From an uncultured Clostridia bacterium (GTDB taxonomy: Bacteria > Bacillota > Clostridia > Oscillospirales > CAG-272), in the NCBI GenBank assembly GCA_947632135.1, contig CANRNZ010000002.1, positions 1 through 48,055 on the forward strand: a stretch of DNA of 48,055 nt, read 5' to 3'. The translations under genes were made by a program, and so were the position numbers. A model generated the notes under the pieces. That model worked only from the letters and a program-made list of their open reading frames with translations, did not search any database and was not told the origin of the DNA. Shown here piece by piece: positions 4,020 through 36,480 of the stretch (its first letter is position 1; every line of letters begins with the position of its first letter).

Positions 4020-4796
4020 TTAATTATTCGGCACCTCTCCGACGCCGTCGAGGACGTATCCCGGACGGTACGGGAACATGTCTATTTCGTCTCTTGACGT
4101 ACAGCCCGAGAGGACGAGCACAGTATCAAGTCCCGTTTCCACACCGGCTATTATATCGGTGTCCATTCTGTCGCCTATCATAACCGCCTCGGCGGAGTGG
4201 ACGCCGAGCATTTTAAGTCCCGTTCTCATCATGAGGGGGTTCGGCTTTCCGATAAAGTACGCGCTTTTGCCCGTCGCAAGCTCTATCGGCGCAATGAGCG
4301 CGCGGCAGGCGGGAATTATCCCCTGCTCGGACGGACCGGTGAGGTCGGTATTTGTTCCTATGAGCTTTGCGCCGTTTCGGACAAAGGAGACAGCCTGAAC
4401 TATGCTCTCGTAGTTATAGTTTGCCGTCTCGCCGACTATGACGTAATCGGGGTTTATATCGTTCATCGTGACGCCGACGTCGTACAGAGCCTTCACAAGC
4501 CCCGGCGCGCCTATGACAAACGCGGTACAGCCCGGGGACTGACTGCTTATGAATTTGGCGGTTGCGAGCGCGCTCGTATAAAAATGGCTCTCGTCAACCT
4601 CAAGGCCCATTCGCGCGAGCTTTTGTCTCAGCTCCTGCGGCGAGCGCTCGCTTGAATTTGTGAGGAAGAGAAATCTCTTGTCCTCCCTGTAGAGCCAGTC
4701 GACAAACTCCCGAACTCCGGGAAGCAGCCTGTTCCCGTGATATATGACGCCGTCCATATCACATATAAACCCTTTTTTATCGCGCAGATGTTCCAT
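4020..4796 (-). CDS. HAD-IIA family sugar/nucleotide phosphatase (NagD-like)
   Basis: 258 aa. HAD motif I is DMDGVIYHG, motif II is LTNS and motif IV is GDRMDTDI. The overall layout is typical of the NagD/AraL subfamily. Confidence 0.8.
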   Translation of the reverse strand: MEHLRDKKGFICDMDGVIYHGNRLLPGVREFVDWLYREDKRFLFLTNSSERSPQELRQKLARMGLEVDESHFYTSALATAKFISSQSPGCTAFVIGAPGLVKALYDVGVTMNDINPDYVIVGETANYNYESIVQAVSFVRNGAKLIGTNTDLTGPSEQGIIPACRALIAPIELATGKSAYFIGKPNPLMMRTGLKMLGVHSAEAVMIGDRMDTDIIAGVETGLDTVLVLSGCTSRDEIDMFPYRPGYVLDGVGEVPNN

Positions 4797-4820: not shown

Positions 4821-4868
4821 TATACGAAACGTATACGAAACGCATACGAAACGTATACGAAAAATACG
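4821..4868. repeat. 11-bp tandem repeat TATACGAAACG, about 4 copies, between the purA stop and the HAD start
   Basis: Read directly: tatacgaaacg tatacgaaacg catacgaaacg tatacgaaaaatacg. Confidence 0.95.
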
Positions 4869-6143
4869 TTATTTTACCTCGATATACTGTTCCCTCGAGG
4901 GGCCGACGGAGATATATTTTATTTTGCAGTCGGTTTTCTTCTCTATATATCTTACGTACTCGAGCGCCTTTTCGGGCAGGTCGCCGATATCGCGGCAGTC
5001 GGAAATGTCGCTCATCCAGCCGTCAAGATATTCATACACAGGCTCTGCCTTTGCGAGAGCGTCTCCTGTCGGGAATTTTTCGGTCAGCGCGCCGTCGACC
5101 TTATATGCGACGCACACCGGTATCTTTTCAAGATATGAGAGAACGTCCATTTTTGTGAGGGCTATGCTGTCCGCGCCCTGAACTCTGACGCCGTAGCGGG
5201 ACGCGGGAATGTCAAAGCCGCCGACGCGGCGGGGTCTTCCCGTTGCTGCGCCATACTCGTTTCCCGCGGCGCGGAGCTTCTCTCCCTCTTTGCCGAATAG
5301 CTCGCAGGTGAAGGGCCCCTCTCCGACGCAGCTCGAATATGCCTTCATTATGCCGATACTCTCGTCAAGCTTTATCTGCGGTATACCGGCGCCAATCGGC
5401 GCGTATGCCGCAATCGTCGACGAGGACGAGGTGTAGGGGTATATGCCGTAGTCGATATCGCGAAGAGCACCGAGCTGAGCCTCGAACATTATGTTTTTCC
5501 CGTCTTTTGCCGCCTCGGTGAGGTATTCGCTCGTGTCGCATATATAGTCCGCAAACGGCGCGGCGTACGTGTTGAGCCAACTCAGCATATCCTCAGCCGT
5601 GACGGGCTCGGCGTGATATCCTCCGCATATAGTGAGATTTTTCCACTCGACAATGTCCGAGAGCTTCTCTTTCAGTCCGTCTTTGCTCAGAATATCTCCC
5701 ATGCGCAGTGTCTTTTTCATGAATTTGTCAGCGTAAACCGGAGCGATTCCGCGCCTTGTCGAGCCGAATTTTTTATCGGCGAGTCTGTCCTCCTCGAGGC
5801 AGTCGAGCAGCTTGTGATACGGCATACAGATCGTCGCTCTGTCGCTTATCTTTAAATGCTCGGGAGTTATTTCGATGCCCGCCTCTCTCAGCCTTGAGAC
5901 CTCGCCGTAAAGATGCTCGACGTCTATCACCATTCCGGGGCCCATAACGTTTACCGTGCCGGGGCGAAGTATACCCGAGGGAAGCAGATTGAGTATGAAT
6001 TTTCCTCTTTCGTTGACGACTGTGTGACCGGCATTGTTGCCTCCCTGATAGCGCACGACGATGTCATAATTTTCGGAGAGAAGGTCTACCATTCTTCCCT
6101 TTCCCTCGTCACCCCAGTTAATTCCCACTATAGCTGTAAGCAT
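4869..6143 (-). CDS. purA: Adenylosuccinate synthetase
   Basis: 424 aa with motifs GDEGKGRMVD (P-loop), QGGNNAGHTV, STRRGIAP and ATGRPRRVGGFD. Confidence 0.95.
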   Translation of the reverse strand: MLTAIVGINWGDEGKGRMVDLLSENYDIVVRYQGGNNAGHTVVNERGKFILNLLPSGILRPGTVNVMGPGMVIDVEHLYGEVSRLREAGIEITPEHLKISDRATICMPYHKLLDCLEEDRLADKKFGSTRRGIAPVYADKFMKKTLRMGDILSKDGLKEKLSDIVEWKNLTICGGYHAEPVTAEDMLSWLNTYAAPFADYICDTSEYLTEAAKDGKNIMFEAQLGALRDIDYGIYPYTSSSSTIAAYAPIGAGIPQIKLDESIGIMKAYSSCVGEGPFTCELFGKEGEKLRAAGNEYGAATGRPRRVGGFDIPASRYGVRVQGADSIALTKMDVLSYLEKIPVCVAYKVDGALTEKFPTGDALAKAEPVYEYLDGWMSDISDCRDIGDLPEKALEYVRYIEKKTDCKIKYISVGPSREQYIEVK

Positions 6144-6269
6144 ATTTTGTTTTCCTCTTTTTTCTTTTTTCTCTTTTGTTTATATACCTTTTATATTTAT
6201 TATCTTCGCTGTTTTGCGCCGCGAAAGCTTTCGGATAAGCTCAAAACAGCTTAAATAATATTTTTTTAT

Positions 6270-9200
6270 TTATATATTTACGGCGTCGTCCTCTTCGATA
6301 AGCTCACGGTTCTCATCAAGAACGGGACGTATGCAGTCCTTTATAAAGACTTCCGTCTGCCTCGGGGCAATGCCTATGAAATTTTTCACGTTTACTATTT
6401 TTTCAAGCTCCTCCTCGGTCACGCCGAAACGGCTGTCCGCGGCGATCCTCGAGAGAAGGTCGTTGTTTCCTCCGTGCAGCTTGATTCGCTTTGTCACGTC
6501 GACAGACAGCTCGCGGATAGCCTCGTGGAGCTCCTGACGGTTGCCGCCCTTTTTGACGCAGTACATCAGTATATTTTCCGTCGCGATATACGGAAGCTCT
6601 TCTCTCAGGTGCTTCTCCATGACTCCCGGATACACGCTGCCGCCTTTTACTATGTTTGTGTAAAGGGTGAGTATGCCGTCCGTCGCAAGGAACGCCTCGG
6701 GAAGGCTTATTCTCCTGTTCGCGCTGTCGTCAAGAGTTCTCTCGAGCCACTGCGTCGCGGCGGTAAAAGCGGGGTTGAGCGAATCGGTTATAACGTACCT
6801 CGCAAGGGAGGCTATCCTCTCCGCTCTCATCGGGTTCCTCTTGTACGCCATGGCGGAGGAGCCGACCTGCTTTTTCTCAAACGGCTCGTCAAATTCCTTG
6901 AGGTGAGACATAAGACGAATGTCCCCCGCGAATTTCGACGCGCTCTGCGCGATGCCCGACAGTACGGAGACGATGAAGTAGTCTATCTTTCGCGAATAAG
7001 TCTGACCGGAAACGGGAATGCACTTATCAAAGCCCATCTTCTTTGCTATCAGATTTTCAAGTCTGAACACCTTTTCCTCGTCCCCGCCGAAAAGGGAGAG
7101 AAAGCTCGCGCCGGTTCCCGTAGTACCCTTGCAGCCTGGGAACATGAGAGAGCCGAGAACGTCGTCAAGTCGCCAAAGGTCAAAGAGCAGCTCCTCAGCC
7201 CAGAGCGTCGCTCTCTTTCCAACAGTCGTCGGCTGAGCCGCCTGAAAATGGGTGTATGCGAGAGTGGGGACGTCCTTATGCGCCTCGGCAAAATCGGCGA
7301 GCGCCGAAAGGGTCGACAGGAGCTTTGACTTTATATGGAGAAGCGCTTCGCGCATTACTATCATGTCCCCGTTGTCGCCGACGTAGCAGGAGGTCGCGCC
7401 GAGATGGATTATAGGCGCGGCTTTGGGGCATACCTCGCCGAAGGTGCGGATATGAGCCATAACGTCATGGCGCAGGGATTTTTCGTACTCTCTCGCTCTG
7501 TCGTAATCTATATCGTATATATGTGCCTTCATTTCCTCTATCTGCTCATCGGAAATGTCAAGCCCGAGCTCCTTTTCGCTCTCGGCAAGAGCTATCCAAA
7601 GCTTTCTCCATGTGGAAAACTTATTGTCCGCCGAAAATATTCTCTGCATTTTTTCCCCGGCGTATCTTTCGCAAAGGGGACTCTCGTATCTGTCGGCTTT
7701 GACAAGCCCCAAAAACAGCGGGTGCGCTTTGTTCGGGCGGCTCTTGAACTCCGGGTGGAACTGGACGCCGACGTGGAAATCGTTTTCGGGTATCTCTACC
7801 GTCTCGACGATGTTTCCGTCCGGCGACGTTCCGCTTATTTTAAGACCTTTTGCGCTGAGAGCTTCTCTGAAATCGTTATTGAATTCATATCTGTGACGGT
7901 GGCGCTCATGTATCAGCTCCTTACCGTAGCATTCGTACATTTTGGTTCCGACAACGACGCGGCACGGATAAGCGCCGAGGCGAAGGGTCCCTCCCTTTTC
8001 GATGCCCGAATACTGGTCGGGGAGAAAATCTATCACCTTGTGAGAGGACATCTCGTTGAATTCACCGGAGTCGGCGTCCTCCATACCGCAGACGTGGCGC
8101 GCGAACTCTATGACCATTATCTGCATGCCGAGGCAGATCCCGAGATAGGGGACGTTGTTTTCCCTCGCGTATCTCTCGGTCGCGATTTTTCCCTCGATTC
8201 CGCGGTTGCCGAAGCCGCCCGGGACAAGGATTCCGTCGAGCGCGGAAAGCTTTTCCTTCGCGTTTTCCTCCGTCACGCTCTCGCTGTCGATCCACTCGAT
8301 ATGGACGCCGGCGCCGGTCTCATATCCCGCGTGGCGGAGCGCCTCGGCGACGGAGAGGTACGCGTCATGCAGCGCGACGTATTTTCCGACAATGCCTATC
8401 GTCACGTCCTCCTTCGGGCTCTTTATCCTTTCGAGCATCTCGCGCCAGCCGTCAAGGTCGGGCTCTCTGTTCTCAAGTCCGAGCTTGCGGCAGACCGCGG
8501 CGGAAAGGCCGTTTTTCTCGAGCATTATCGGCGCCTCGTAAAGGGTGTCGAGGGTGAGGTTTTCTATAACGGAGTCCTCTGTTACGTTGCAGAAGAGAGA
8601 TATCTTTTTGAATATGCTCTTTTCGAGTGGTCTGTCGCAGCGAAGGACTATGACGTCGGGCTTTATTCCCATTCCCTGAAGCTCCTTGACGGAGTGCTGG
8701 GTCGGCTTTGTCTTATGCTCGTCCGAGCCGCTGAGGAAAGGAACGAGGGTGACGTGTATGTACATCGCGTTCGAGGGGCCGACCTCAAGGCCGACCTGAC
8801 GGATTGCCTCGAGAAACGGCTGGCTCTCGATGTCACCCGTCGTGCCGCCTATCTCCGTTATGACGATATCAGCGCTCGTCTTTTTTCCGACGCTGTATAT
8901 GAAGTCCTTTATCTCGTTTGTTATATGCGGTATCACCTGAACCGTATGTCCGAGATACTCGCCGCGCCGCTCCTTGTTCAGCACGTTCCAGTATACTTTT
9001 CCCGTAGTCAGATTTGAAAATTTGTTAAGGTCCTCGTCGATAAATCTCTCATAGTGTCCAAGGTCAAGGTCAGTCTCCGCGCCGTCCTCCGTGACGTATA
9101 CCTCTCCGTGCTGGTAAGGACTCATCGTTCCGGGGTCGACGTTGATATAAGGGTCGAGCTTTTGAGAGGCGACCTTATATCCTCTCGCTTTAAGAAGTCT

Positions 9201-9275
9201 GCCGAGGGACGCCGCGGTTATGCCCTTTCCGAGCCCCGATACGACCCCTCCCGTAACAAAAATATACTTTGTCAA
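6270..9275 (-). CDS. pyrG/purB: Fusion protein: CTP synthase (N-terminal ~527 aa) joined directly to ADSL-type adenylosuccinate lyase (C-terminal ~474 aa)
   Basis: One open frame (track ORF 6270..9284). The likely start is TTG 9275, 6 nt after AAGAGGTG, giving the canonical PyrG N-terminus [18 protein letters not shown]. PyrG GATase motifs GICLGMQ and VQFHPEF are present. The junction reads [10 protein letters not shown]|[16 protein letters not shown] at nt ~7692-7697. PurB motifs HDVMAH and [15 protein letters not shown] are present. Confidence 0.85.
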
Positions 9276-9352
9276 TTTCCACACCTCTTTTGTTTGCAGA
9301 CGCCTGCAAAATTATTTACCTTTTATACTCAGGCTTCAGCATTGCTTTACGC

Positions 9353-9940
9353 TCAGTTTTCGTAAGCGCGGATTATGCTCCGCGCCACCTCCGCTTTTTT
9401 CACGCACCTGTCCATCGCCTGTTTTTCCACGTATCGGTGAGCCTCGGGCTCGCTCATTTTAAGTCTGTCCATAAGGAGCCACTTCGCGCGGTTCACGAGA
9501 CGTATCTCCTCCATTTTGGCTCTGAGGCTGACAGCCTCCCTTTCGTACGCCTCAAATCTGTGTCTTACGGCGCACAGCATTCTCACCGCCATATACAGCT
9601 CGTTTTTTGACAGAGGGCGCTTTAAGGTTACAATGCCGTACTTTTCCACCTTGGACGCCACCTGCTCGAATATATCCGCCTTTACGATAAGTATGACTCC
9701 TATCTCCCGTCTCGCGGCAATGCCGACGGCAAGCTCTATTCCGAAGTCGTCGGGAAGCGGAGTGTTTATCACCACTATGTCGACGTCGGACATTTCGGTC
9801 ATACGTCGACGCGCCTCGCCGCTCTCCGACGCCGAAACGACGCGGGAAAACAAATCCTTGGGGAGCGCGTCGCTCAGCATATTGCAAAGCTGCTCCGTTT
9901 TCGACACGGCAAGCACACTGTACGGACGCCGTTCAACCAC
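9353..9940 (-). CDS. ANTAR-domain RNA-binding antiterminator with a degenerate (pseudo-)receiver domain
   Basis: The C-terminus carries ANTAR (RAKWLLMDRLKMSEPEAHRYVEKQAMDRCVKKAEVARSII). The N-terminus is REC-like but reads SVLAVSKTEQ and DIVVINTPLPDD at the acidic-pocket and phospho-acceptor positions. The likely start is GTG 9940, 4 nt after AAGGGGGAAGG. The track ORF begins at TTG 9973, which has no RBS. Confidence 0.8.
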   Translation of the reverse strand: MVERRPYSVLAVSKTEQLCNMLSDALPKDLFSRVVSASESGEARRRMTEMSDVDIVVINTPLPDDFGIELAVGIAARREIGVILIVKADIFEQVASKVEKYGIVTLKRPLSKNELYMAVRMLCAVRHRFEAYEREAVSLRAKMEEIRLVNRAKWLLMDRLKMSEPEAHRYVEKQAMDRCVKKAEVARSIIRAYEN

Positions 9941-10055
9941 AGGACCTTCCCCCTTTCGGCAGAAATAAAGCAAAACGTTAAATAAGTTAAATAATCGGAT
10001 AATTAAAATAAAAGTAAATCGAAGATGTCATAAAATCAAAGCTCAAAATCAAAAA

Positions 10056-11264
10056 TTAAATCTCAAACGCCTCAAGGTAAGCCTTCGGCAGGCAATCCCT
10101 TACAAATCGGCTGTTCTTTGCCGCCTCGAGCGCCTCGCTCAGCGAGGAGGGCAGCTTTTCGAGGGAGCCCGTCACAAGAGAGTCCGCCGTATAGAGGTTC
10201 TCGTTTACGGGTGCGGAGGGCTTTTCCTTGTTTTTTATCCCCTCGAGTCCCGCGCGGATAATAAGCGCGTACGCAATGTACGGGTTGCACATCGGGTCGG
10301 GGCTTCTCAGCTCTATGCGCCGCCTGCCTTCCGACGCGGCGGGTATTCTTATGAGCTGCGAGCGGTTCTCGGGCGACCACGAAATGTAAAGCGGCGCCTT
10401 TTTCTCCCCGAGTCTCTTGTATGAATCCTCGGTGGGATTGAGAAACAGGGTCATATCCTTTATTCTGTTCATGACTCCCGCCATAAAGCTGTCGCTCGGG
10501 TCCGCCCCGCCGCGGCTTTCCACGGAAATATTTATGTGCATTCCGCTTCCCGCCTCGTTTTCGAGAGGCTTCGGCGAAAAGTCTGCTGTCAGTCCGTTTT
10601 CGACGGCGACGCTCTTTACGGCCCACTTAAAGGCGGAGGTGTTGTCGGCGGCGCTCAGCGCGTCGCTGTATCTGAAATCTATTTCGTTCTGCCCCGGGCC
10701 GACCTCATGGTGAGACGCCTCGGTGACAATACCCATTTCGTTAAGGGTGAGGCATATTTCGCGCCGTATGTTCTCGCCTCTGTCGTCGGGGGCTATATCC
10801 ATATATCCCGCTCTGTCGAGAGGCTCCCTCTCGGCGCCCTCTGTCTGAGAGTCCCCCTTGAAAAGGTAAAACTCCATTTCGGGCCCCACCGAGACTGTTA
10901 TACCCTCAAGCGCCGCGTCGGCTACCGCCTTTTTAAGTATATATCTCGAATCCTTTTCAAAGTGCGAGCCGTCCGGGCGGTACACGTCGCAGTACATTTT
11001 GACGACTCTGCCGTGGGACGGTCTCCAAGGGAGCACAGACAGAGTCGACGGGTCCGGGCGGAGGAACAAATCGCTTTGCTTCTCGTCGCCGAAGCCCGAC
11101 ACCGCGGACGCGTCAAAGGAGATGCCCTCCTCCATCGCGCGCCTCAGCTCGGACGGCGGAACGGACACGTTCTTCTGTTTTCCCCATATATCAAAATATG
11201 CGAGTCGTATAAATTTAACGTCCTCTTCCTCAACGTACGAAAGAACATCATCAAAAGTATACAT
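10056..11264 (-). CDS. glnA: Glutamine synthetase family protein, short GS-I-like (about 402 aa)
   Basis: GS beta-grasp N-terminus (VKFIRLAYFDIWGKQK). Catalytic-domain motifs GSGMHINIS, NPTEDSYKRLG and ENRSQLIRIP are present. The likely start is ATG 11264, preceded by GGGGG. The track start is 11285. Confidence 0.8.
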   Translation of the reverse strand: MYTFDDVLSYVEEEDVKFIRLAYFDIWGKQKNVSVPPSELRRAMEEGISFDASAVSGFGDEKQSDLFLRPDPSTLSVLPWRPSHGRVVKMYCDVYRPDGSHFEKDSRYILKKAVADAALEGITVSVGPEMEFYLFKGDSQTEGAEREPLDRAGYMDIAPDDRGENIRREICLTLNEMGIVTEASHHEVGPGQNEIDFRYSDALSAADNTSAFKWAVKSVAVENGLTADFSPKPLENEAGSGMHINISVESRGGADPSDSFMAGVMNRIKDMTLFLNPTEDSYKRLGEKKAPLYISWSPENRSQLIRIPAASEGRRRIELRSPDPMCNPYIAYALIIRAGLEGIKNKEKPSAPVNENLYTADSLVTGSLEKLPSSLSEALEAAKNSRFVRDCLPKAYLEAFEI

Positions 11265-11300
11265 GTCAGCCCCCAAATTCCTCATATTTAAAACAAAATA

Positions 11301-11370
11301 TTAAAGCAAAATTTTAAAGCAAAATTCGAAAAAGTTTCGGAACGGTTTCGGAAAATTTCGGATTGGTTTC
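11301..11370. repeat. Short tandem repeats in the glnA leader: TTAAAGCAAAAT x2 and GTTTCGG(A) x3-4
   Basis: Read directly in the 11301-11370 stretch. Confidence 0.85.
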
Positions 11371-11473: not shown

Positions 11474-11527
11474 AAAAAATTATAAAAGCGCTCACCCGAA
11501 GGGGCAACCTCCCCCGTAGATGAACGC
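11474..11527 (-). terminator. Leader structure/terminator T1 of the glnA-like gene
   Basis: Minus strand reads GCGUUCA-ucuac-GGGG-gagguug-CCCC-uucggg-UGAGCGC followed by UUUUAUAAUUUUUU. It starts about 20 nt after the predicted TSS. Confidence 0.45.
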
Positions 11528-11549
11528 CATTGCTCGCTTCAGCGGCTAT

Positions 11550-11578
11550 AGTATACCAATTTTTACGCTTTTTGTCAA
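11550..11578 (-). promoter_or_regulatory. Near-consensus sigma-70-type promoter for the glnA-like gene
   Basis: Minus strand reads TTGACA (11578-11573), a 17-nt spacer, then TATACT (11555-11550). The predicted TSS is near 11543, giving a 5' leader of about 280 nt. Confidence 0.6.
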
Positions 11579-11865
11579 GTTACTTTTATAAGATTTATAA
11601 GTTTATAATGTTATTGAAATAAATTGCGAAACGGAATAACTCGGAAATAAAATTCAAAAAATCTTACCCGATTTTTTCCGAGCTATCGTAACTCATCCAA
11701 TAAATTTACAAGCTGAATTTACAGGCGGTTTATCCGCATCCCTTTTACCGTGATTTTGCATCCCGCTTTGTCATACAACTCGCACAAAAGTTTGCGGCGC
11801 AATATTTCGTTTGGTGGTGAAATCTCCGAAAAGACGCCGAGTTCCCTTTTTTTCGCCAAGAAGTA

Positions 11866-36432: not shown

Positions 36433-36480
36433 ACAAAAGTTTTCGCCCGCCTTTTTCAAAAGGCGGGCGAAAACTTTTGT
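36433..36480. terminator. Long perfect hairpin between convergent greA and thrS (probable bidirectional terminator, built from repeat family A)
   Basis: ACAAAAGTTTTCGCCCGCCTTTT-tc-AAAAGGCGGGCGAAAACTTTTGT has arms of about 23 bp. Confidence 0.6.

Follow-up and report, generated by a model that had tools for sequence, protein, structure and literature searches.

CTP synthase (PyrG) and adenylosuccinate lyase (PurB) are both homotetramers of D2 symmetry, and in PurB the tetramer is obligate, each active site being built from three subunits. Stand-alone PyrG, as in Thermus thermophilus (1VCO) and E. coli (1S1M), carries a synthetase and a class-I GATase domain. Stand-alone PurB of the ADSL type is represented by human ADSL (5NX8/2J91) and by the clostridial enzyme of 476 aa. 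Fusion of adjacent operon genes is a well-known process, and eukaryotic CAD, GART, and PAICS are multifunctional nucleotide-biosynthesis fusions. Sporadic PurB fusions also occur in protein catalogues, namely a singleton PurB+AIRS protein (P0148) and a STAS+PurB protein (P0162). The PyrG·PurB chain described here resembles all of these in placing neighbouring or pathway-related enzymes on one polypeptide, but the others have partners from a single pathway or are conserved, whereas PyrG and PurB belong to different pathways and their join is not conserved. The literature yielded no paper describing a fusion of pyrG with purB or of CTPS with ADSL. Together with the protein searches given below, in which no characterised or catalogued case appeared, this agrees with an earlier note on this DNA, whose author knew of no characterised PyrG-PurB fusion.

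Reading frame, domains, and operon

The window is the whole stretch of 48,055 nt that was analysed, from an uncultured Clostridia bacterium. The fusion and its surroundings comprise the following features:

4020..4796, minus strand: HAD-family hydrolase gene, closing the conserved purB-purA-HAD block
4869..6143, minus strand: purA, adenylosuccinate synthetase, 424 aa, next operon gene after the fusion
6198..6260, minus strand: predicted stable hairpin in the purB-purA spacer
6270..9275, minus strand: pyrG·purB fusion ORF, TTG start 9275-9273, stop 6272-6270, product identical to database protein P0394
6270..7694, minus strand: PurB (ADSL-type adenylosuccinate lyase) half, residues 528-1001 and stop, from motifs and Pfam/NCBIfam
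7692..7697, minus strand: junction codons GCC (7697-7695) and GAC (7694-7692), Ala527 and Asp528, inferred site of a 35-nt deletion relative to L173/L174
7695..9275, minus strand: PyrG (CTP synthase) half, residues 1-527, from motifs and Pfam/NCBIfam matches
9282..9289, minus strand: Shine-Dalgarno AAGAGGTG, 6 nt 5' of the TTG start of the fusion ORF
9353..9973, minus strand: response-regulator gene with ANTAR domain, next upstream of pyrG; annotated at 195 aa in relatives
10056..11285, minus strand: glnA, glutamine synthetase, opening the operon; annotated in conspecific strains as 402 aa from 11264
11474..11586, minus strand: promoter (TTGACA-17-TATACT) and terminator-hairpin leader, heading the operon

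Counted from the TTG, the fusion ORF is 1001 aa long and uninterrupted. The ORF listing gives a single ORF at 6270..9284 (-), of 1004 aa if a GTG is taken as start; this GTG is part of the Shine-Dalgarno. The 1001-aa product matches a public-collection entry (P0394, NCBI source) exactly. There is no stop or frameshift at the junction and no N anywhere in the window. Pfam detected CTP_synth_N (6-270), GATase (305-529), Lyase_1 (561-831), and ADSL_C (898-978), and the catalytic motifs of both halves are all intact.

For the PyrG half we looked for the GGVVSxLGKG loop and a class-I GATase with the GxCLGxQ Cys and the HPE His/Glu. The nucleotide-binding loop lies at 9, the GATase Cys motif GICLGMQ at 379, RHRHRYE at 458, and FHPEF at 506. 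NCBIfam PyrG TIGR00337 scored 807.8 bits (cut-off 462.75) over profile positions 2-526 of 526, and NF003792 scored 831.3 bits (cut-off 308), so that the equivalog cut-offs are exceeded and the domains and motifs of a CTP synthase (EC 6.3.4.2) are present. Residues 3-527 align collinearly with 13-542 of the 550 residues of 1VCO (E = 1e-192), and the domains and motifs are those of stand-alone PyrG. Unlike stand-alone PyrG, the PyrG half has no free C-terminus; its last conserved helix leads straight into a lyase of 474 residues.

The PurB half was assigned by the fumarase/aspartase signature loop SSxMxxKxNP with its catalytic Ser, the His motifs, and an N-terminal Arg-Tyr. PLCERYA is at 533, RHDVMAH at 602, THFQAAQ at 675, and the signature loop at 805. 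NCBIfam purB TIGR00928 gave 377.4 bits (cut-off 326.2) over profile positions 2-433 of 436, and with Lyase_1, ADSL_C, and these motifs the half has the sequence features of adenylosuccinate lyase, ADSL subtype (EC 4.3.2.2). Its best solved homologue is human ADSL (E 4.5e-158), collinear from residue 13 to 474 and sharing the signature loop, His motifs, and ADSL_C; the description of this half as eukaryote-like ADSL type is therefore correct. Compared with stand-alone ADSL, it lacks its own start codon and ribosome-binding site, and a covalent bond to PyrG replaces the free N-terminus, with the conserved Arg-Tyr about 9 residues further on. Free PurB by internal re-initiation was considered and rejected: the only nearby in-frame Met (EKM) follows the Arg-Tyr, so that, judged from the sequence, a truncated enzyme would result.

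Other claims of the earlier note held as well: one frame that encodes PyrG and an ADSL-type PurB, both complete (by ORF listing, Pfam, and NCBIfam), the TTG start at 9275 (with its Shine-Dalgarno and a product equal to P0394), and purA directly downstream. The purB-purA spacer, at 126 nt, is unusually long against 31-36 nt in the sisters. The operon leader and promoter are conserved, with 87-88% identity in L171 and L173, and Rfam gave no known RNA family in the leader.

The junction against split relatives

The nearest relative of the same synteny is represented by loci L173 and L174, in which the order is glnA-ANTAR-pyrG-purB-purA with pyrG and purB as separate genes. Their PyrG and PurB show 89.8% and 90.1% aa identity to the fusion. 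L173 shares the whole order of the window, including the same conserved leader ahead of glnA, and both loci share with it the PurB N-terminal sequence (DRYESPLC…) and the PyrG end. In L173/L174, a PyrG of 533 aa is followed by a stop, 8 nt, and a PurB of 476 aa. At the junction the window shows one clean gap against them, being exactly 35 nt shorter, which places purB in the pyrG frame. The missing 35 nt run from the last 6 PyrG codons, where the purB Shine-Dalgarno lies, through stop and spacer to ATG-AAC, so that 6 residues are lost from PyrG (AIKKGE) and 2 from PurB (MN). A split allele would carry between the genes a segment of the type GCAATAAAAAAAGGAGAATAAAAAAGCGGATGAAC, about 35 nt with stop and ATG. 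In the window the join is flanked by …CTTGTCAAAGC and CGACAGATACGAG and reads GTCAAAGCCGACAGATAC, also given as …CTTGTCAAAGCCGACAGATACGAG…; nucleotide homology to the stand-alone purB of the sisters starts at 7695/7694.

L173/L174, like L007, L090, L091, and L101-106, have a split, translationally coupled pyrG-purB-purA operon. In such relatives a PyrG tail of 6-14 residues, containing the Shine-Dalgarno, is followed by a stop and a separate purB ATG, none of which the window has, and the distance between the genes ranges from a small overlap to 8 nt, whereas the window reads through. The stop is kept at 15 of 15 other loci with adjacent pyrG and purB, 13-29 codons after HPLF. As far as public data go, the join is unique to this assembly and its sisters are split with normal termini (533 and 476 aa in L173/L174, besides the 15 further relatives that keep the stop), a pattern which the earlier note had named as counting against the fusion. 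Two of its points on the junction stand: no linker was added, GCC and GAC adjoining directly, and more than a stop codon was lost, 35 nt being gone relative to L173/L174. Its count of about 10 PyrG C-terminal residues and the first few of PurB was too high, and the significance that it implied is reduced to a one-step event, a single 35-nt deletion between neighbouring, translationally coupled genes.

Searches for further fusions and for conspecific sequence

Besides the window, 0 of the 174 related loci fetched carry an end-to-end PyrG-PurB fusion, and the closest relatives are split; the check proposed earlier, for the same four-domain architecture in related genomes, thus came back negative. 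Among 5.8 billion clusters, neither a full-length nor a junction-centred query retrieved a fused representative, and exhaustive HMMER over 1.84 billion 50% representatives found none either. A scan of species-representative genomes gave no match above 77% identity and a metagenome scan none above 72%, with no fusion in either. The fusion of the window itself sits in a 90% cluster whose representative is an unfused PurB, and further fusions could therefore be hidden in the same way. In loci with purB alone, tblastn matches extending into query residues 481-530 suggested PyrG remnants ahead of purB, but these were rejected as alignment run-on through stop-containing non-coding DNA.

One related metagenome contig (L001, protein P0001) has a similar join, likewise in frame and in the same synteny, ANTAR-pyrG·purB-purA. 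Its breakpoints are internal, PyrG 1-366 being joined to PurB from about residue 70, so that, unlike in the window, the GATase active site (Cys) and the PurB N-terminal domain are deleted. This join arose either independently, as a destructive event, or as an artefact; no intact conspecific of P0001 showing the native junction was among the retrieved proteins.

An exact look-up of the window's PurA matched no record, but conspecifics of the window were located through the GlnA cluster, and besides run SRR29273038 the Logan runs behind P0400 and P0402 contain conspecific contigs. Contig L172 (run SRR29273038) shows 98.3% nt identity to the window over 4081 nt, with every indel intergenic and 0 in coding sequence, so the window contig is clean. 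However, L172 ends at window position 8344, inside pyrG and before the junction, and therefore gives no independent confirmation of the join. No conspecific fragment covering fusion residues 448-607 was found in the protein collection with a junction-centred query. The fusion is thus a singleton, on one contig with no second assembly across the junction.

The join shows no break in GC3 or codon usage and is thus no inter-genome chimera. A chimeric misjoin of distant loci was ruled out by this homogeneous codon usage and by flanking synteny identical to L173 and L001.

Origin of the join and its consequences

The pyrG-purB join is most likely a genuine, recent, lineage-restricted fusion of operon genes, and we put at about 65% the reading that it is restricted to this species or strain and arose by a single 35-nt deletion leaving both halves complete. 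The ancestral locus would have been leader-glnA-ANTAR-pyrG-(8 nt)-purB-purA-HAD. As the ribosome-binding site of purB would have lain within the last pyrG codons, the two genes were presumably translationally coupled. One deletion, …AAG GC[A GCA ATA AAA AAA GGA GAA TAA AAAAGCGG ATG AA]C GAC…, would then have taken the dispensable 6-residue tail of PyrG, the stop, the spacer, and the purB Shine-Dalgarno and start codon, with purB moved by -2 nt and so brought into frame with pyrG. In the resulting chain of 1001 aa the halves would be linked by native terminal residues alone, about 7-10 of them non-helical, and PurB would be obtainable solely within the fused chain, 1:1 with PyrG. From its motifs and domains the fusion is probably bifunctional, and we infer both the survival of the two activities and the presence of the fusion in a living genome.

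It is rather unlikely that the join is an artefact or a minority allele, with the dominant genome split as in L173 and the gap in the window due to faulty sequencing or assembly, to a chimeric read, or to the assembler's choice of a rare variant path. The confinement of the fusion to one contig fits such an origin, as do the A-rich, low-complexity nature of the deleted stretch (GCAATAAAAAAAGGAGAATAAAAAAGCGG) and the many assembly artefacts catalogued in this gene family, among them P0002, P0005, and P0008 with their internal duplications and P0001 with its destructive join; there is also an ascertainment effect, since the initial screen singles out exactly such clean ORFs. Yet a 35-nt deletion is an unusual type of error, and its flanks have no long repeat in common that could collapse, so an assembler would need reads carrying the join. 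The join is in frame, and between two conserved domains it touches nothing but the one 35-nt stretch that is dispensable. The coding regions are free of indels against the conspecific contig, and the public collection lists the product as an ordinary protein of 1001 aa. A real deletion whose allele is functionally compromised or neutral, with a second pyrG or purB copy or gut nucleoside/purine salvage compensating, is likewise unlikely. It might be argued that a deletion could persist only if in frame and viable, but two findings weaken this: the sister lineage L170/L171 has lost glnA-ANTAR-pyrG from the locus and keeps a pyrG 3' remnant of about 40 nt, and L001 tolerates its destructive join. 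Second copies or salvage may thus render these genes dispensable in this organism. The very short connector points the same way: it could impair assembly between two D2 homotetramers, and the Arg-Tyr of PLCERYA, which we take to be the substrate-binding pair of human ADSL, lies about 9 residues past the join. Against a compromised allele, all motifs are intact, only non-conserved terminal residues were removed, and the PyrG C-terminal tail varies in length and sequence among relatives. In the comparison with the sister, the PurB half has a dN/dS of 0.04-0.06, matching that of purA next to it (0.04), although at a dS of about 1.2-1.8 to the nearest relative this ratio is uninformative on the post-fusion period.

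It is very improbable that the fusion belongs to an older family of bifunctional PyrG-PurB enzymes that is conserved and adaptive. Adjacency of pyrG and purB is widespread in related Clostridia and members may hide under unfused representatives, but the architecture was found in no second genome, neither among the 174 loci nor among the cluster representatives, and the same-synteny relatives L173/L174 are split. We also consider it improbable that the fusion is fixed in the species, fully active, and drawn by a connector of about 8 residues into a higher-order lattice or filament co-assembling and co-regulating CTP synthase and adenylosuccinate lyase. If true, this would be a natural super-assembly of metabolic enzymes through which pyrimidine and purine synthesis are linked, with nitrogen (glnA/ANTAR) control over both. 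The AF2 monomer model of the fusion is of moderate quality (pLDDT 69.7, pTM 0.48) and for this reason too weak for claims on quaternary structure. It shows a helix at 519-525 and the next at 533-538, with 527-536 at low confidence, so that the connector is a non-helical, low-confidence stretch of 7-10 residues and no rigid helix crosses the join. The unusual assembly and purine/pyrimidine coupling suggested earlier are speculation.

The genuine, recent fusion that we favour adds no new biological principle, and there is no evidence of conservation, adaptation, or selective advantage. As the fused protein was hidden in a 90% cluster under an unfused PurB, architecture surveys on cluster representatives can miss fusions. 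If real and active, the PyrG-PurB chain would be a natural gene fusion caught soon after its birth, one whose ancestral split state, precise 35-nt event, and conspecific population can all be identified. With two obligate homotetramers joined almost end to end, it would be a test case for how far oligomeric enzymes tolerate fusion.

The fused reading frame and its two halves

The window is an entire NCBI contig of 48,055 nt. The ORF listing, the window sequence, and Pfam gave the following features for the CTP synthase (PyrG)–adenylosuccinate lyase (PurB) frame.

6270..9284, minus strand: open frame, 1004 aa from GTG
7697-7695, then 7694-7692, minus strand: junction codons GCC, then GAC
Residues 6-270: CTP_synth_N
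Residues 305-529: GATase
Residues 561-831: Lyase_1
Residues 898-978: ADSL_C

The GTG of the 1004-aa reading sits inside the Shine-Dalgarno sequence AAGAGGTG. The TTG at 9275, 6 nt downstream of this Shine-Dalgarno, yields a 1001-aa product that is exactly P0394 of the public protein collection, in agreement with the start proposed in the earlier note. No stop, frameshift, or N was found at the join in the window sequence, and the ORF, domains, and junction codons bear out the single uninterrupted frame claimed there.

Both halves had also been described as complete, and this was upheld. They passed the curated equivalog models end to end, with 807.8 bits for PyrG (TIGR00337, profile 2-526/526) and 377.4 bits for PurB (TIGR00928, profile 2-433/436). 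Solved CTP synthases were collinear with the PyrG half (1VCO, E 1e-192). Human ADSL was the best structural match of the PurB half (E 4.5e-158), so the label ‘eukaryote-like’ is right. All motifs examined were found: the nucleotide-binding loop, the GATase Cys in GICLGMQ, and FHPEF in the PyrG half, and PLCERYA, RHDVMAH, THFQAAQ, and the signature loop in the PurB half. Taken singly, PyrG and PurB are both ordinary members of their families.

The AlphaFold model of the fusion was moderate (mean pLDDT 69.7, pTM 0.48). The last PyrG helix spans 519-525, the first PurB helix 533-538, and residues 527-536 were low-confidence and non-regular. These helix ends and the irregular stretch suggest that the native termini would form a short flexible connector and no rigid continuous helix.

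The 35-nt segment and the split relatives

Pyr­G-PurB gene adjacency was common in both genome scans and in look-ups of close PyrG homologues. The pyrG stop was kept 13-29 codons past the conserved HPLF in 15/15 adjacent loci. In a ‘tight’ class, pyrG and purB either overlap or are separated by 2-8 nt, with the purB Shine-Dalgarno inside the PyrG tail. The window's species was not found among 185,579 species-representative genomes (best match 77 %) or in a metagenome-contig collection (best match 72 %).

With the PurB half as query, stand-alone 476-aa PurBs were retrieved at 90 % identity, and the relative contigs L170, L171, L173, and L174 were reached via their cluster members. L173 and L174, from two independent samples, show the window's exact synteny, leader-glnA-ANTAR-pyrG (533 aa)-8 nt-purB (476 aa)-purA, with identities of 89.8 % and 90.1 % to the PyrG and PurB halves, respectively. 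Their alignment with the window contains a single clean gap, exactly 35 nt long: GCAATAAAAAAAGGAGAATAAAAAAGCGGATGAAC. In L173/L174 this segment codes the final six PyrG residues (AIKKGE) and carries the purB Shine-Dalgarno (AAGGAG), the TAA stop, the 8-nt spacer, and the purB ATG-AAC. Because 35 ≡ 2 (mod 3), its loss puts purB in the pyrG frame. From this alignment, the fusion appears to be a single-step joining of two neighbouring, translationally coupled genes. The earlier view that more than a stop codon was lost is correct for the 35 nt, but the event is still a single-step fusion of neighbours.

The L170/L171 PurB is 97 % identical to that of L173. There the same leader lies directly before purB and a ~40-nt 3' remnant of pyrG persists; adjacency was therefore ancestral there too. 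The sister species has two structural states, the full operon (L173/L174) and the leader straight before purB, each found in two independent samples. Comparison of L170:1-113 and L171:255-360 with L173:3800-3895 showed the equivalent of a ~3.6-kb deletion of glnA-ANTAR-pyrG.

Operon context

The fusion belongs to a minus-strand operon of promoter/leader, glnA, ANTAR response regulator, pyrG·purB, purA, and HAD hydrolase, divergent from a GS-III/asnB/gltBD cluster. purA adjoins the fusion, as previously noted. No second pyrG or purB was found within the window.

4869..6143, minus strand: purA, downstream of the fusion
11586-11474, minus strand: promoter TTGACA-17-TATACT and terminator-hairpin leader, heading the glnA-ANTAR-pyrG·purB-purA operon

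The leader hairpin is a strong terminator (GCGUUCAUCUACGGGGGAGGUUGCCCCUUCGGGUGAGCGC and U-run) after the promoter (11474-11586, minus). The leader is 87-88 % identical in L171:174-285 and L173:278-392, versus only ~80 % for coding DNA, and has no match in Rfam. As a candidate attenuator, it would be under control of the operon-encoded ANTAR protein. Between leader and glnA (11300-11350, minus), indels of 11 and 13 nt against the conspecific contig L172 fall in a repetitive stretch rich in TTCCGAAA/TTTTGCTTTAA and are strain-level repeat-number variation.

In the window the purB-purA spacer (6144-6269) measures 126 nt; the sisters' spacers are 31-36 nt long. The additional ~91 nt form a stable hairpin at 6198-6260 (minus; dG −23.2 kcal/mol, z −4.35 vs shuffles) with no U-run behind it, which may be an inserted element for RNA stability or processing, or else a small repeat. 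In the spacer separating purA from the HAD hydrolase gene (4830-4859, minus), the terminator scan showed two overlapping short hairpins made of a repeated CGTATxCGTTTCGTATxCG motif. A palindromic terminator-like element at 36443-36478 (AAAAGTxTTCGCCCGCCTTTTGAAAAAGGCGGGCGA) is 89 % identical to L171:59-95, which precedes the purB promoter of the sister; it is either a bidirectional terminator that both have or a small dispersed repeat.

Singularity, rival readings, and meaning

The window's fusion had no end-to-end counterpart in 174 fetched loci, among 5.8 billion 90 % cluster representatives (full-length query), or among 1.84 billion 50 % representatives by exhaustive HMMER, where top scores were PyrG-only (673 bits) and PurB-only (645 bits). 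A 160-aa junction-centred query of the same 5.8 billion gave no fusion, its best matches covering only ~50 % (149 bits), and nothing was found in the literature. P0394 itself is filed under the unfused representative P0271, so representative-based searches can hide sporadic or multi-domain fusions. Even so, a clade with the fusion fixed should have surfaced, and a conserved adaptive PyrG-PurB family is highly improbable.

The P0271 cluster (90 %, 476-aa stand-alone PurB as representative) also holds several PyrG N-terminal fragments. The representatives include singleton PurB fusions (P0148, P0162, P0130: PurB+AIRS (PurM-like), STAS+PurB, and PurB with a His_kinase fragment). Several catalogued PyrG proteins (P0002, P0005, P0008) have internal tandem duplications, probably assembly artefacts.

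The only other ‘fusion’, P0001 (L001:8989-11307), is an in-frame pyrG-purB join in a relative whose synteny is like the window's. PyrG 1-366 runs into PurB at ~residue 70, at GCGGCGCGCGAG, and the GATase active site including the catalytic Cys is deleted; this join arose independently by a destructive deletion, or else it is an assembly artefact. Deletions seem to strike the pyrG-purB pair readily.

The most likely reading, at a probability of about 0.65, is a genuine ORF whose product is a bifunctional chain. An artefact or minority allele is unlikely. In its favour, the fusion is a singleton; L172, from a different sample, ends at 8344, short of the junction, and no conspecific fragment spanning it was found in the protein collection. 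Against it, GC3 and codon usage are equal on both sides of the join, and there is no hint of a chimera in composition or synteny. No repeat that could collapse in assembly is common to the two flanks of the deletion, and 35 nt is atypical as a sequencing error. L172 is 98.3 % identical over 4081 nt, with every indel intergenic and 0 in coding sequence. The join is also in frame, within the sole 35 dispensable nucleotides separating two conserved domains.

Slightly less likely still is an allele that is real but compromised or neutral, with other copies or salvage making up for it. The argument that only viable deletions survive, which would speak for a real fusion, is weakened because L170/L171 lost pyrG from the locus and L001 carries a destructive join; both suggest that these organisms can survive damage to the locus. 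dN/dS against the sister was 0.04-0.06 for the PurB half, equal to purA (0.04), but is uninformative on time after fusion because dS is ~1.2-1.8.

For the bifunctional chain, the PurB Shine-Dalgarno and start are lost and the next in-frame Met lies past the conserved Arg-Tyr; PurB can therefore be made only as the C-terminal half. PurB and PyrG would be produced in a 1:1 ratio. The earlier observation was confirmed and its interpretation partly supported. The fusion is a one-off from a trivial event, with no sign of conservation. The PyrG-PurB architecture is undescribed, and the kind of event, operon-gene fusion, is already known.
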